From an uncultured Thermoproteaceae archaeon (GTDB taxonomy: Archaea; Thermoproteota; Thermoprotei; Thermoproteales; Thermocladiaceae): 64,000 bases of DNA. Shown piece after piece: positions 31,845 to 52,997 of the stretch (the stretch's first letter is position 1; every line of letters starts with the position of its first letter). The stretch is from NCBI GenBank assembly GCA_964575955.1, contig CAZNTG010000009.1:64001-128000 (forward strand), in the 5' to 3' direction. Under the pieces are notes generated by a model. The model searched no databases, was not told the DNA's origin, and was given only the letters and a program-made list of their open reading frames with translations. The translations under genes were made by a program, and so were the position numbers.

Positions 31845-31894
31845 TCAGGCTCGCCCATCGTTCATCAATACTCAGCTACCAACGCGTTCATCAT
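31845..31894 (-). ncRNA. C/D-box guide sRNA
   Basis: Minus strand: ATGATGA-ACGCGTTGGTAG-CTGA-gta-TTGATGA-ACGATGGGCGAGC-CTGA; canonical four-box layout. Confidence 0.93.
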
Positions 31895-34901: not shown

Positions 34902-34949
34902 TCAGTGCCGGAAACCTTCTTCATCTTTCTGTTGCAGGACTTTCATCAT
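34902..34949 (-). ncRNA. C/D-box guide sRNA overlapping the radA stop codon
   Basis: Minus strand: ATGATGA-AAGTCCTGCAA-CAGA-aag-ATGAAGA-AGGTTTCCGGCA-CTGA. Confidence 0.88.
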
Positions 34950-44061: not shown

Positions 44062-45861
44062 ATGGCAGAGCAGAAGGGTAAGATAATCTGGATTAGTGGT
44101 CCTGTAGTAAAAGCTGAACTTCCTGGAGCTAAGATGTATGAGCTAGTCTTCGTTGGTGAACTTGGCCTATTTGGAGAAGTTGTCAGAATTCAGGGTGATA
44201 TAGCATTCATACAGGTATATGAAGACACGACAGGAATTAAGCCAGGAGAGCCTGTAGTAAGATCAGGAGAGCCACTATGTGCATGGCTTGGACCTGGAAT
44301 ACTTGGAACAGTGTATGATGGAGTTCAAAGACCTCTAAAATTGATATATGAGACTACTGGAAGCCCATTCATAGCTAGAGGTATTGGATATGATAAAGCA
44401 CCACCACTAGACTTTAAGAAGAAGTGGCACTTCGTACCAAAGGTAAAGCAGGGTGATGAAGTACAGCCTGGAGATATTCTAGGTGTTGTACAGGAAACAC
44501 CACTGGTAGAGCATAGAATAATGTATCCACCACTACCAGAGAATAAGCCTGGAAAGGTCAAGTATATAGCACCTGAAGGAGACTACACAATAGATGAGGT
44601 AATTGCAGAGATTGAGACCAAGGAAGGAGTTGTCAAGGTTAAGATGTGGCATAAATGGCCTGTTAGAAAGCCAAGACCATTCGTAGAGAAGTTACCACCA
44701 GTAGAGCCATTCTTAACAAACATCAGAATACTAGACACACTATTCCCAATAGCTAAAGGAGGAACAGCATGTGTGCCAGGACCATTCGGAACAGGTAAGA
44801 CAGTGACGATACAGAGCTTAATGAAGTACTCAGCAGCAAGAATATGCTTCCCAGTACTATGTGGTGAACGTGGTAATGAGGCTGCAGATTCACTACACAG
44901 TCTACTAAAATTGACAGATCCAGATACTGGAAGACCATTGATGGAGCGTACAGCAATTATTGTAAATACATCAAACATGCCTGTAGCAGCTAGAGAAGCA
45001 TCAATATACATGGGAATCACAATATCAGAATACTACAGAGATATGGGATATGACGTACTACTACTAGCAGACTCAACAAGCAGATGGGCAGAAGCTATGA
45101 GAGAGGTAGCACTTAGAATTGGTGAGATGCCATCAGAAGAAGGATTTCCAGCATACTTACCAACAAGAATTGCAGAATTCTATGAGAGAGCTGGAAGATG
45201 TGTACTACTAGGCAAGGAAGGTAGAATAGGATCAGTAACAATTGCTGCATCAGTATCACCACCAGGAGGAGACTTCACAGAACCAGTAACAAGCAACACA
45301 ATAAGATTCGTATCATGCTTCTGGCCACTATCAGCAAGAATTGCAGCACAGAGACACTACCCAGCATTCGACTGGTTAGCAGGATTCTCAAAGTATGTAG
45401 ACACAGTACAGGACTGGTGGCATAAGAATATTGGACCTGACTGGAGACAGCTTAGAGATCAGATGATGGAGTTGCTAGTTAAAGAGGCTGAATTGATGGA
45501 GATTGTGAGAATCCTAGGTACAGAAGCATTAAGTGAGTATGAGAGACATATACTAAACACAGCATACATGATTAGAGAAGGATTCCTAAAGCAGGACGCA
45601 TTCCACCCAATAGACTGCAGATCACCACCACCAAAGACATACATGTTGATGAAGATAATAATTGACGTATATTGGAGAAAGGGATTAGAAGCAATTAAGC
45701 GTGGAGTACCTGCACAGGCAATTAGAGAGTTAGAACTATCTAGAAGATTACCAAGACTTAGAATGGAGGTTACAGAGAAAGAGCTAGATAAATTGAAGGA
45801 GTTCTATGAACAGCTAAGTGCAGAGATTGATAAATTGATAGAGCAGTACGCTAAGAAGTAA
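44062..45861 (+). CDS. atpA: A/V-type ATP synthase subunit A
   Basis: GPFGTGKT, CGERGNE, NTSNMPVAARE, DSTSRWAEA, SPPGGDF. Confidence 0.97.
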   Translation: MAEQKGKIIWISGPVVKAELPGAKMYELVFVGELGLFGEVVRIQGDIAFIQVYEDTTGIKPGEPVVRSGEPLCAWLGPGILGTVYDGVQRPLKLIYETTGSPFIARGIGYDKAPPLDFKKKWHFVPKVKQGDEVQPGDILGVVQETPLVEHRIMYPPLPENKPGKVKYIAPEGDYTIDEVIAEIETKEGVVKVKMWHKWPVRKPRPFVEKLPPVEPFLTNIRILDTLFPIAKGGTACVPGPFGTGKTVTIQSLMKYSAARICFPVLCGERGNEAADSLHSLLKLTDPDTGRPLMERTAIIVNTSNMPVAAREASIYMGITISEYYRDMGYDVLLLADSTSRWAEAMREVALRIGEMPSEEGFPAYLPTRIAEFYERAGRCVLLGKEGRIGSVTIAASVSPPGGDFTEPVTSNTIRFVSCFWPLSARIAAQRHYPAFDWLAGFSKYVDTVQDWWHKNIGPDWRQLRDQMMELLVKEAELMEIVRILGTEALSEYERHILNTAYMIREGFLKQDAFHPIDCRSPPPKTYMLMKIIIDVYWRKGLEAIKRGVPAQAIRELELSRRLPRLRMEVTEKELDKLKEFYEQLSAEIDKLIEQYAKK

Positions 45862-47179
45862 GAGTCTTTAAAAACTTTACAAAATCATCAATATTCCTAG
45901 ATATATACTCAACAATAGCTTTACGAATAACATCTCTAGAAATATTTCTCATAAATATCTTACTAACCATAGCCTCTATAATACTTATAGTATCATTTTC
46001 CTCAAACATTCTGTAAGTACTATACTTCTTACAGATCTCAACAAGCTTATCTATAAGTGGTTCTATTTTATCAATATTAAAACCGACATCATCAATAACT
46101 TCAATATTTTGATCTCTTAACCTATCTTTAATATTTTCAGGTACTCTACATCTAGATACTACAAACATAATATCAGGCTTATATACAGATCTATACAACA
46201 TCACTATCTGCTCATCTTTAAGTTTAATACTCTTCTTCTCTTCAATCATAGTATCAACCTTCTTAACTTCAATACCTAGAATATCTGCAAGTCCCTGTCT
46301 AAGACCAACCAACCACTTACTTCTCCATTCTTCAGCTGATAGTGGTTTTGCTAATGGTCCTCTAATATATCTAACACGTGTATACCAATCTGGAAGTTCC
46401 TTACATTCAATTATCACGTGTGGTCTAACTATTGGAGGACTTCTCTCTAAATCAACAATATTAAATATAGCATCACCATACACAAGCATGTCTGGTCTAA
46501 GTGCTGTATATAGACTCCATATTCTCGATAGATCTTGAGTATCTTCCCAAGATATTGGTCTAGGAGCTTCAATGAAGAAGCTAATACTAGTAAAACCACA
46601 TCTCAAGACTGCGTTTGGTGGAATATATCCAAGCTTTTGCTTACTATGTCTCTCAAGTGATAATACACCAAGCTCAGGATATACCAGTCTAAAACCTCTT
46701 TCATGAAGTTTTAACAATATTGCTAAGAATACCCAATCCTGATATATAGTCCTCATATTTGTCCTAAGTGACGTCATTATGGCAGGATAAGCCTTCTCAG
46801 CAAACTCTTCAAAACTTACTTTACCTCTAAGAAGATCATGAACATATAGAAATATCTTCTTCTTAAGATGATGTTTTGGATCTTTCAAAAAACTTGAAAG
46901 TTCTTTAGAAAATACAATATCTAGAAGTCCAAAAGTCTTCTTAAACTTAGAAGCTAGATTTAGTAAAATATTTCTCCACTCTTCTGCAAGCTTAATATCA
47001 TCACCACATACAACATCAACTATAGCATCTCTAAAAGATTCAAATAAAGTATGAAACTTCTCTCTAACTTCAACATTTCTAAATTTAAAAGTTCTATTTG
47101 GATCATAAGTATCTAAAAATTTCATTAACTCATTAAAATAGTTTAATATACTCGACAACTTATCTACAACCTTACCCAC
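45851..47179 (-). CDS. Uncharacterized protein with putative PD-(D/E)XK nuclease motif
   Basis: LRPDML...VIIECKE motif. Confidence 0.55.
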   Translation of the reverse strand: MGKVVDKLSSILNYFNELMKFLDTYDPNRTFKFRNVEVREKFHTLFESFRDAIVDVVCGDDIKLAEEWRNILLNLASKFKKTFGLLDIVFSKELSSFLKDPKHHLKKKIFLYVHDLLRGKVSFEEFAEKAYPAIMTSLRTNMRTIYQDWVFLAILLKLHERGFRLVYPELGVLSLERHSKQKLGYIPPNAVLRCGFTSISFFIEAPRPISWEDTQDLSRIWSLYTALRPDMLVYGDAIFNIVDLERSPPIVRPHVIIECKELPDWYTRVRYIRGPLAKPLSAEEWRSKWLVGLRQGLADILGIEVKKVDTMIEEKKSIKLKDEQIVMLYRSVYKPDIMFVVSRCRVPENIKDRLRDQNIEVIDDVGFNIDKIEPLIDKLVEICKKYSTYRMFEENDTISIIEAMVSKIFMRNISRDVIRKAIVEYISRNIDDFVKFLKTLTS

Positions 47180-47223
47180 AGAAGAGTGAAAGTATTAAAG
47201 AAAATAAATCTTCCTAAATATAG

Positions 47224-47272
47224 ATGATGAATACGGAGCTCAATGATAGATGATTAACTGGGGAACTACTGA
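47224..47272 (+). ncRNA. C/D-box guide sRNA (array unit 1)
   Basis: ATGATGA-ATACGGAGCTCA-ATGA-tag-ATGATTA-ACTGGGGAACTA-CTGA with TAGA/TCTA terminal stem. Confidence 0.88.
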
Positions 47273-47293
47273 TCTAAAAATGTTGTATAGACA

Positions 47294-47342
47294 ATGATGA
47301 AGTTTCACTTCGCTGAATGTTGATGAAGCCTCTACTCGCTGA
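47294..47342 (+). ncRNA. C/D-box guide sRNA (array unit 2)
   Basis: ATGATGA-AGTTTCACTTCG-CTGA-atg-TTGATGA-AGCCTCTACTCG-CTGA. Confidence 0.93.
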
Positions 47343-47359
47343 ATATTCATCATTCTATA

Positions 47360-47409
47360 ATGATGACGCCAATTTGCCTCTGAATATTGATGAAGTCACC
47401 CGAGACTGA
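47360..47409 (+). ncRNA. C/D-box guide sRNA (array unit 3)
   Basis: ATGATGA-CGCCAATTTGCCT-CTGA-ata-TTGATGA-AGTCACCCGAGA-CTGA. Confidence 0.93.
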
Positions 47410-47410
47410 T

Positions 47411-47992
47411 CTAGACAATACCTTTAGTACTTTGAACATGTTCAACAATTCTTGAAGCTTCATTAATAGAGATTCCAAGAGATTTAAATATAGCCTCAGT
47501 AATATGATGTTCATTAAAACCGTCAAGAACCTTTATATGAATAGTAGCTTTTAGATTTGTTGTGAAAGTATTTAAGAAATGTACAATATTTTCTGTAGAT
47601 ATATCACCAATCTTCTCTCTTCTATACCTATAGTTGAATTTGAAGTATACTCTACTACATAAATCTACAGATGTTAGACATAGAGCATCATCCATAGGTA
47701 TTATAGACCATCCAAATCTCTTTATTCTAGATCTATCTCCAAGTGCATTATTTAGAGCATTTCCTAGACATATAGCAACATCTTCAACAATATGATGATC
47801 ATCACCACAACTCTTCAATTCTTCAGCATGAATTTCACCACTAAACTTTGCATAAAATAAGAAGGTCTCTAACATATGGTCTAGAAATCTTATTGAAGTA
47901 TTAACACTTATATGACCATGATCGTCAATGTTTAAATAAACTCTAACATATGTTTCTCTAGTCTTTCTTTCACAAAAACCTTCTCTACCCAC
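47411..47992 (-). CDS. hisB: Imidazoleglycerol-phosphate dehydratase
   Basis: RKTRET, FLDHML, DHHIVED, PMDD, NEHHITE, STKG. Confidence 0.96.
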   Translation of the reverse strand: MGREGFCERKTRETYVRVYLNIDDHGHISVNTSIRFLDHMLETFLFYAKFSGEIHAEELKSCGDDHHIVEDVAICLGNALNNALGDRSRIKRFGWSIIPMDDALCLTSVDLCSRVYFKFNYRYRREKIGDISTENIVHFLNTFTTNLKATIHIKVLDGFNEHHITEAIFKSLGISINEASRIVEHVQSTKGIV

Positions 47993-51806: not shown

Positions 51807-52966
51807 TAAATTTATCAAGAATAAGAGTTGGAATCTGTAAGACAGGTCTAGAGGCAGTTCTAATACTTGAAGATGGGTCAATATACTATGGATGTGGTTT
51901 TGGTGCTAAGGGTACTGCAGTTGGAGAGGTAGTATTTACAACATCAATGGTTGGATATCCAGAATCATTAACAGATCCAAGCTATGCAGGTCAAATATTG
52001 ATAATTACACACCCACTAGTTGGCAATTATGGTGTTGCATCTAGAGAATTAGCAATATATGGTGTGCCACTACACTTCGAATCTGATAGAATATGGGTAT
52101 CAGGATTTGTAATACACGACTTAACAGAGCCAAGTCACTGGTCATCAATTATGAGTTTAGATGAGTGGCTTCGTAGAGAGGGAATACCTGGAATATATAG
52201 AGTTGATACACGTGCATTAGTGAAGAAGATTAGAGAGAAAGGTGTTATGATGGGCATATTACACGTATATGATCCTAGAGAAGAAGAGCCAGACATAGAT
52301 GAGCTATATGCAAAATTGAAAAGTTCTCCAAGATATGATGATATACCTTTCGTAGATATAGTATCTCCAAAAGAAGTAATAGTTCATGAACCTGAAAATC
52401 CAAAAATTACTGTAGGTATACTTGACTGCGGTGTTAAGTATGGAATTGTTAGAGAATTATTAAAGAGGAGGTGTAGAGTTGTGAGATATCCACCATATAC
52501 AGATCCTTCAAAGATAGTTAATGAATGCGATGGTGTTGTAATTAGTAATGGTCCTGGAAATCCTGCAGTACTTACAGAAATTATAAAGCGTGTACAAGCA
52601 TTAATAGAGTATGGAATACCAATACTAGGTATATGCCTTGGACATCAACTAACATCACTAGCACTTGGAGCAAAGACATTCAAATTAAAGTACGGTCATA
52701 GAGGTCCAAATAAGACTGTTAAAGATTTAGAGACAGGTAGATGCTATATAACAACTCAAAATCATGGTTTTGCAGTAGATAGAGAACTTGCAGAAAAGGT
52801 TGGACTGAAATTATGGTTTATAAATGTTGATGATAAGACTGTTGAAGGTTTAAAACATGTAAATAAACCAATAATAACAGTGCAGTTTCATCCTGAGGCA
52901 GGACCTGGACCTCATGATACATCTTGGATATTTGACCTATTTCTAAAAATGATGAAAGCTCAGTAA
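51803..52966 (+). CDS. carA: Carbamoyl-phosphate synthase small subunit
   Basis: LTDPSY, SNGPGNP, GICLGHQ, QNHGF, QFHPEAGPGPHD. Confidence 0.97.
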   Translation: MINLSRIRVGICKTGLEAVLILEDGSIYYGCGFGAKGTAVGEVVFTTSMVGYPESLTDPSYAGQILIITHPLVGNYGVASRELAIYGVPLHFESDRIWVSGFVIHDLTEPSHWSSIMSLDEWLRREGIPGIYRVDTRALVKKIREKGVMMGILHVYDPREEEPDIDELYAKLKSSPRYDDIPFVDIVSPKEVIVHEPENPKITVGILDCGVKYGIVRELLKRRCRVVRYPPYTDPSKIVNECDGVVISNGPGNPAVLTEIIKRVQALIEYGIPILGICLGHQLTSLALGAKTFKLKYGHRGPNKTVKDLETGRCYITTQNHGFAVDRELAEKVGLKLWFINVDDKTVEGLKHVNKPIITVQFHPEAGPGPHDTSWIFDLFLKMMKAQ

Positions 52967-52997
52967 ACAGAGAGATGAAGATGCGGAGCTGGTCTGA
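52949..52997 (+). ncRNA. C/D-box guide sRNA overlapping the last codons of carA; guides match 16S rRNA consensus
   Basis: ATGATGA-AAGCTCAGTAAA-CAGA-gag-ATGAAGA-TGCGGAGCTGGT-CTGA. Confidence 0.9.

Follow-up and report, generated by a model that had tools for sequence, protein, structure and literature searches.

A tandem array of three box C/D sRNA genes in the hisB-ORF442 spacer of an uncultured Thermoproteaceae archaeon

We report three box C/D sRNA genes placed one after the other on the same strand, between hisB and a gene of unassigned family (ORF442), in a 64,000-nt stretch of DNA (hereafter the window) from an uncultured Thermoproteaceae archaeon. The three units are real genes of this class, far beyond what chance would produce. 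We consider it likely, from their anatomy and upstream sequence, that they are functional archaeal guides for the fibrillarin-catalysed 2′-O-methylation of 23S rRNA, most probably released from one precursor that would be transcribed from one TATA-type promoter upstream of unit 1. Comparison with congeners, in which the same sRNA genes are dispersed, indicates that the array was assembled in this lineage.

Organization of the locus

When a strict box pattern was applied to both strands of the window, the layout C-guide-D′-3 nt-C′-guide-D was found three times over on the plus strand at 47224-47409 (Table 1). According to the list of open reading frames, the array lies antisense within the 231-nt spacer that separates hisB from ORF442, being convergent with hisB and divergent from ORF442, and a single nucleotide stands between the last D box, which ends at 47409, and the hisB stop codon. 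Searches of Pfam and NCBIfam returned no match for ORF442. An earlier note, made from the letters of this sequence, had described three same-strand units of 49-50 nt with six distinct guides of 12-13 nt, separated by spacers of 21 and 17 nt, with one nucleotide left before the convergent hisB stop; every one of these structural details was checked on the sequence and is exact.

Table 1. Features of the sRNA array and its surroundings (positions are those of the window)
Feature	Position	Strand	Length	Details
ORF442	45851-47179	-	442 aa	family unassigned; divergent from array
TATA-like A/T-only heptamer	47193-47199	+		TATTAAA; starts at -31 from unit 1 C box; candidate single promoter
Unit 1 sRNA	47224-47272	+	49 nt	
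Unit 1 C box	47224-47230	+		AUGAUGA
Unit 1 D′ guide	47231-47242	+	12 nt	
Unit 1 D′ box	47243-47246	+		AUGA
Unit 1 linker	47247-47249	+		
Unit 1 C′ box	47250-47256	+		AUGAUUA
Unit 1 D guide	47257-47268	+	12 nt	
Unit 1 D box	47269-47272	+		CUGA
Spacer 1	47273-47293	+	21 nt	
Unit 2 sRNA	47294-47342	+	49 nt	
Unit 2 C box	47294-47300	+		AUGAUGA
Unit 2 D′ guide	47301-47312	+	12 nt	
Unit 2 D′ box	47313-47316	+		CUGA
Unit 2 linker	47317-47319	+		
Unit 2 C′ box	47320-47326	+		UUGAUGA
Unit 2 D guide	47327-47338	+	12 nt	
Unit 2 D box	47339-47342	+		CUGA
Spacer 2	47343-47359	+	17 nt	contains UCAUCAU
Unit 3 sRNA	47360-47409	+	50 nt	
Unit 3 C box	47360-47366	+		AUGAUGA
Unit 3 D′ guide	47367-47379	+	13 nt	
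Unit 3 D′ box	47380-47383	+		CUGA
Unit 3 linker	47384-47386	+		
Unit 3 C′ box	47387-47393	+		UUGAUGA
Unit 3 D guide	47394-47405	+	12 nt	
Unit 3 D box	47406-47409	+		CUGA
hisB	47411-47992	-	193 aa	imidazoleglycerol-phosphate dehydratase; stop codon 47411-47413; Pfam IGPD E 7.1e-51

The TCATCAT of the second spacer is the complement of a C box, and the spacer is complementary at 10 of 10 positions to the start of unit 1 (47224-47233) and, at 80% across a 20-nt stretch, to the beginning of unit 2; read on the minus strand, it presents an isolated C-box motif. Folding of the whole array as RNA gave a z score of 0.05 against shuffles, and neither terminal stems nor a bulge-helix-bulge motif were evident. 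Elsewhere in the window further C/D candidates are found at 31845-31894 (-), 34902-34949 (-) and 52949-52997 (+), which correspond to positions 95845, 98902 and 116949 of the contig (C9).

Identity of the three units

Archaeal C/D sRNAs have the consensus C box RUGAUGA and D box CUGA, in agreement with the motifs seen in Rfam alignments, and all three units carry the former near their 5′ end and the latter near their 3′ end. The assembly to which the window belongs (G000) has 1.52 Mb at 33% G+C (67% A+T). We scanned it with a relaxed pattern, in which the C-box core and the D box had to be exact and at most one mismatch was allowed in each of D′ and C′, and after the candidates had been made non-redundant there were 120 C/D sRNA candidates in the genome, while three shuffled genomes gave 0, 0 and 0. 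About 120 candidates is a very high density for a genome of 1.5 Mb.

At gathering thresholds, Rfam gave no match in the window. In a permissive search, unit 2 was matched by snoPyro_CD (RF00095) with 37.0 bits and E 2.7e-6, unit 1 by sR20 (RF01140) with 32.1 bits and E 4e-5, and unit 3 by sR9 (RF01312) with 25.8 bits, all of them below the respective gathering cut-offs of 45, 44 and 36. Of the 45 entries in the permissive list for 47100-47500, 44 belong to C/D-box families and 43 map to the plus strand. Because the Rfam models are built on particular guides, such sub-threshold scores are expected and weigh little.

The inner boxes of the candidates fall into a few classes genome-wide, namely CAGA/UGAAGA (37 cases), CUGA/UGAUGA (23), CUGA/UGAAGA (13) and AUGA/UGAUUA (12), and D′ and C′ covary: of 38 CAGA cases 37 have UGAAGA as their C′ box, and all 12 AUGA cases have UGAUUA, a covariation that the requirements of the kink-loop would explain. 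Unit 1 belongs to the AUGA/UGAUUA class, so that what could be taken for “degenerate” boxes represents a regular class in this genome. Indeed, the double change in its AUGA/AUGAUUA combination keeps the pair between the first D′ and the sixth C′ nucleotide. The commonest kink-loop of the genome is itself the non-canonical CAGA/UGAAGA.

The protein partners are encoded as well. Fibrillarin (PF01269, 348 bits), Nop (PF01798, 236 bits) and two L7Ae-family genes (PF01248, 106 and 78 bits) all score above their Pfam cut-offs; a single Nop gene was found, and it lies on another contig. Tandem constant motifs with variable guides would also be expected of a guide array of another kind, CRISPR-like or TIGR-Tas-like, and TIGR-Tas proteins do contain a Nop-type domain (PMC12045711). 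We give this identity practically no credence, since it is effectively refuted by the box anatomy and the neighbours: the constant motifs match C, D′, C′ and D boxes exactly and keep the canonical 12-nt spacing, 117 further candidates with the same architecture occur in the genome, mostly dispersed, and the array is flanked by hisB and by a conserved ORF with no Pfam match, Nop included, the Nop gene being on a different contig.

Candidate promoter and proposed maturation

Upstream of the 120 candidates, A/T-only heptamers pile up between -34 and -29 from the C box with a peak at -31 (22 of 120), over a background that is mostly 1-7 per position beyond the range of about -37 to -27 and amounts to 5-10 between -19 and -7. 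A TATA element about 25-30 nt before a transcription start lying just upstream of the C box would account for the peak at -31. Unit 1 has its heptamer at exactly this position (Table 1), which in a genome of 67% A+T is weak evidence. Units 2 and 3 have no A/T heptamer at -34 to -28, and their -31 position falls inside the D guide/D box of the preceding unit. The only A/T heptamer of spacer 1 is TAAAAAT, at -19 from the unit 2 C box, and spacer 2 contains none. The view of the earlier note that the spacers are too short for separate promoters is thus in keeping with the upstream sequences, in which unit 1 only has the promoter-like element.

Genome-wide, same-strand neighbours with spacers of at most 35 nt form 6 pairs where random placement would give 0.38, and the array in the window is the only triple among them. 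Two other tandem pairs, with spacers of 33 and 29 nt, have an A/T run of their own near -30 in each case, and no such run is found near -30 in the same-strand pairs with a spacer of -1 or 24 nt. The heptamer at -31 of unit 1 only, together with the excess of close pairs, makes one shared promoter the best reading of the locus, and the array is probably tricistronic. These six pairs also qualify the remark of the earlier note that archaeal C/D sRNAs are mostly dispersed, which is not wrong but is overstated. At G000:C3:125692-125789 (+), two sRNA genes overlap by 1 nt and share an A that closes the D box of one and opens the C box of the other (CTGATGATGA), an arrangement that resembles the sR34/sR40 box overlap of Pyrobaculum neutrophilum (PMC6009581).

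Genuine sRNA genes could also each have a compact promoter of their own, overlapping the end of the preceding unit or lying in the spacer. Spacer 1 would offer its TAAAAAT heptamer for this, A/T-rich sequence is found everywhere in the genome, and in Pyrobaculum sR100 is reported to have its own predicted promoter and possibly to be read from an upstream one as well (PMC6009581). We regard separate promoters as unlikely, since at the modal TATA distance units 2 and 3 meet G/C-containing D guide and D box sequence that is constrained by target pairing, and since unit 3 would have to do with a spacer devoid of any A/T heptamer.

We hold it to be still less likely that the array has no dedicated promoter, and that its sRNAs are rescued by sRNP assembly from the by-product of divergent or pervasive transcription from the ORF442 promoter region. 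The unit 1 C box (47224) lies just 44 nt from where ORF442 starts (47179), and the two would have to share an A/T-rich control region; insertion in any transcribed context has been described as enough for maturation (PMC7994747). Against this, the heptamer stands at the exact distance seen in stand-alone sRNA genes; such a scenario would moreover be hard to tell from transcription by one dedicated promoter, and it would still be polycistronic.

No oligo-T terminator is seen on the sequence after unit 3. A scan for sigma-70 promoters and intrinsic terminators gave nothing, and its models are not applicable to archaea. As unit 3 ends 1 nt from the convergent hisB stop, its transcript would run antisense into hisB, and since there is neither an oligo-T terminator nor a significant fold, the 3′ end would be formed by processing of this antisense transcript.

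If the shared-promoter reading holds, transcription from the TATA-type promoter just 5′ of unit 1 would yield one precursor RNA at least about 190 nt long, in which each unit would fold into a C/D kink-turn and a C′/D′ kink-loop. L7Ae, Nop5 and fibrillarin would then bind each unit and protect it, while cellular nucleases, or high-temperature hydrolysis, would clear away both spacers (21 and 17 nt) and the 3′ tail antisense into hisB. To our knowledge, no processing enzyme is known for archaeal C/D sRNA clusters; the uncharacterised cutting activity to which the earlier note appealed is therefore not a mistaken idea, but it was overstated as a puzzle, being the accepted state of the field. The route proposed here is the published model for archaeal C/D sRNAs, whose maturation is set by the box motifs and not by the flanks, and in which sRNP assembly is thought to shield the body of the RNA during terminal trimming (PMC7994747).

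Predicted targets of the guides

No match to LSU or SSU rRNA was found in the G000 assembly or in those of six congeners. Because the organism's own rRNA is not in the assembly, all target fits given here rest on the rRNA of relatives. We searched six 23S and four 16S sequences of relatives from other genera of the same family or order, with E. coli numbering obtained by alignment with E. coli rrlH and significance assessed with 300 guide shuffles.

The D′ guide of unit 3 gives an uninterrupted run of 11 Watson-Crick pairs with GGCAAATTGGC in the 23S of four of the six relatives, as the earlier note had predicted for this guide. Its D guide gives a run of 10 pairs at a site 27 nt upstream of the D′-guide site, again in four of six. 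The sites lie at 1824 and 1797 of the 23S of one relative (G009), and the fifth-position nucleotides, which are the predicted methylation sites, correspond approximately to E. coli A1676 and G1649. The unit 1 D′ guide makes 10 Watson-Crick pairs and one G-U pair at position 1047 of the same 23S, and the D guide fits less well (score 7.5/11) at 1071, in a variable helix 24 nt downstream; the predicted methylation sites would be near E. coli 927 and 951, respectively. None of 300 guide shuffles attained the two-site pair score of unit 3, and none that of unit 1. Single guides often fell short of significance, and those of unit 3 are no better than shuffles, of which 95 and 26 of 300 reached their scores. 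The best single match of the unit 1 D guide, at G009 23S 2172, was set aside as probably due to chance, as it falls in an intron that the other five 23S lack.

For unit 2, the earlier note had proposed two neighbouring sites in domain I of 23S rRNA, and the relatives do not confirm them. Their 23S rRNAs read TGAGTAGGGGC, invariant in all six 23S and near E. coli U243, where the D guide pairs imperfectly (9 Watson-Crick pairs, 2 G-U pairs and a terminal mismatch) and would direct a predicted methylation, and about 50 nt upstream they read CGAACGGAAAC, where the D′ guide has two central mismatches, one of them at the N+5 methylation position. The score of this D′ guide alone was reached by 90 of 300 shuffles. 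The exact pair of strings that had been proposed, placed 20-50 nt apart, gave no match in metagenome and genome contig collections. The best-scoring pair of sites for unit 2 was in the 16S of one relative (G013); 8 of 300 shuffles attained its score, and we rejected it because it is rich in G-U pairs and the other three 16S do not conserve it. The unit 2 targets are thus offered as a hypothesis. It had also been suggested that the guides be compared with the tRNAs of this genome, and no near-perfect guide site was present in the 36 tRNAs found.

An anchor pattern made from the two unit 3 targets returned 28 metagenome and 14 genome loci. Near-perfect “targets” in L035 and L071, and partial ones in L044 and L068 (all at 39% G+C), were found to be unit 3 homologs read on the antisense strand, not rRNA; none of the true rRNA matches of the pattern was closer than G009. 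Contigs of two DNA runs that aligned to a relative's 16S-23S at 80% likeness were a mix of many organisms, from which the archaeon's own rRNA was not recovered. The rRNA loci of the relatives (L002, L009, L010 and others) contain introns, their 23S measuring 3.2-4.3 kb and their 16S up to 2.2 kb, and their 16S-23S spacers are about 50 nt long and carry no tRNA.

Conservation and probable function

When the array region was compared by BLAST with 30 relatives, homologs of single units were found in three genomes of the same genus only: G003 and G006 each have one of every unit, and G005 has one of unit 2. The D′ guide of unit 2 is identical in all three homologs and its D guide in two of the three. 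In the unit 1 homologs the first nucleotide of each guide differs, with one further D-guide position in G003, and the guides of unit 3 differ from those of the congeners at a terminal nucleotide. The D′-C′ linkers, by contrast, differ in every congener copy, and the flanks cannot be aligned past the boxes. Such conservation of the guides against diverged linkers and flanks is the signature of selection on the guides. In the order as a whole, the unit 3 pattern was found in 3 of 62 genomes, this one counted, and the guide sets in this genus only.

We also searched five genomes (G001, G002, G004, G005 and G008) for guide-plus-box patterns with up to three mismatches, and matches were no commoner than those of reversed-pattern controls, with two exceptions, both in G005, namely the unit 2 homolog (0 mismatches) and a match to the unit 3 D guide with 1 mismatch; as the metagenome-assembled genomes in this search are 69-95% complete, not found does not mean absent. 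A box scan of five loci from that search gave no homolog of the three units and one unrelated C/D candidate (L099).

That the units are decaying or non-functional sRNA-like relics would be compatible with the unconfirmed targets of unit 2 and with the frequency of orphan guides in archaea (PMC7994747). We find this very improbable, given that all twelve boxes are intact or correctly covarying, that in congeners the guides show little or no change although the adjoining nucleotides have wholly diverged, and that no guide has a second copy in the genome. Indeed, each of the six guides occurs once only, which suggests that the array holds the working copies, and the three units are, on these comparisons, very probably functional.

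Origin of the array

In each of the five congeners with an identified hisB (G001, G003, G004, G005 and G006), an ORF442 homolog comes after it. In tblastn searches the homologs of G003, G005 and G006 are 55-59% identical over the full length and start about 15-30 nt after hisB, and in G001 and G004 matches to the N-terminal part of ORF442 lie about 1.2 kb after hisB with another ORF in between. No C/D candidate was present at the hisB-ORF442 loci of these five congeners. In both G003 and G006 every unit has its homolog on a contig of its own, and the genes beside these homologs have their G000 orthologs at other places (C6 at about 607 kb, C6 at about 547 kb, C2, and C9 about 12 kb from the array), while unit 2 of G005 is found in yet another gene context. 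The separate contigs of the homologs and the empty hisB-ORF442 spacer of the congeners thus point to a triple that was put together in this lineage. Synteny in relatives, a check that the earlier note had recommended, thus shows a lineage-specific array, with a junction free of sRNAs and dispersed units in the congeners.

Two exact direct repeats are found at the edges of the units. ACTGATCTA occurs after unit 1 (47268-47276) and after unit 3 (47405-47413), where it is followed in both flanks by GACAAT save for a 13-nt insert, and TAGACAAT occurs before unit 2 (47288-47295) and after unit 3 (47412-47419), where it includes the hisB stop. They may be traces of joining, or they may be due to chance in A/T-rich DNA. 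GACAAU is also borne by unit 2 in a congener.

It is conceivable, and we raise it tentatively as something more doubtful than otherwise, that the array records the movement of sRNA genes. Solitary genes of about 50 nt would have been brought singly into a hisB-ORF442 spacer of 15-30 nt, beside a promoter region, and the ACUGAUCUA/GACAAU flanks, together with the GACAAU of the congener unit 2, would be junction scars of a microhomology- or RNA-mediated reinsertion, for example of circular sRNAs.

Another cluster of this genome, at G000:C12:20402-20578, consists of three sRNA genes of which the middle one is inverted and convergent with the first, their D boxes abutting as CTGATCAG. In G001, G002 and G004 the homolog of this middle gene is on the same strand after the first gene, at a distance of 10-13 nt, with conservation of the upstream flank. 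The cluster is, as judged from this comparison, the product of an inversion of one gene of about 50 nt, and if the array did arise by movement of sRNA genes, this single-gene inversion would be a second event of the same process.

Significance

The locus adds three well-formed guide RNA genes, and the genome about 120, to what is described for an uncultured hydrothermal-vent archaeon. The array is one more co-oriented sRNA cluster, in hyperthermophilic Thermoproteales, for which such clustering is routine; its type is already known, and the finding is sound and unsurprising. Its modest value is comparative, in that sister species have these three guide RNAs at scattered loci and an empty hisB-ORF442 junction, which makes the array a clean comparative case of the relocation of sRNA genes into a shared transcription unit.

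Comparison with known guide RNA clusters

In their general features the units are those of archaeal box C/D sRNAs, with C, D′, C′ and D boxes, 12-13-nt guides, a 3-nt linker and a total of about 50 nt, and the genome encodes the partner proteins; dual guidance to nearby 23S sites, another trait of the class, is predicted for units 1 and 3. The array differs from the archaeal C/D families of Rfam, below each of whose gathering cut-offs it scores, and in having guide sets found in this genus only.

Co-transcribed clusters of two or three archaeal C/D sRNA genes, as well as sRNA gene mobility, are already described (PMC7994747, PMC6009581). The published archaeal clusters, among them those that PMC7994747 summarises from Tripp et al. 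2017, have same-strand units a few to tens of nucleotides apart, as in the array, and they likewise include downstream units with no promoter of their own and arrangements that shift between congeneric species; a TATA-like motif of its own is reported for only about 20% of archaeal C/D sRNA genes (PMC7994747). In Pyrobaculum, of the same order, the sR101-sR21 dicistron, possibly with sR100 in addition, was confirmed by RNA-seq (PMC6009581), whereas the co-transcription of our three units is predicted from the sequence. The sR34 and sR40 genes of the same genus are co-transcribed with either a 10-nt spacing or a 4-nt box overlap, and the orientation and linkage of its sRNA genes vary between species, with duplication, circular permutation and “gene mobility” being described (PMC6009581). 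A tRNA-Met (CAT) gene followed 37 nt downstream by a C/D sRNA gene on the same strand, at G000:C6:379678-379844 (+), recalls the tRNA-Met/sR44 linkage of Pyrobaculum (PMC6009581).

Plant polycistronic snoRNA clusters resemble the precursor proposed here in that several C/D guides come from one transcript (PMC7994747). Eukaryotic clusters are matured by endo- and exonucleases (PMC7994747), unlike the archaeal case, which has no known enzyme. The position of unit 3, 1 nt from the hisB stop, is like that of category 3 of Lui et al. 2018, in which an sRNA is antisense at the 3′ end of a protein gene, with the difference that the body of unit 3 lies outside the hisB coding sequence and that none of the guides of the array is constrained by coding. 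Throughout, the array fits the published picture of archaeal C/D sRNA clusters.
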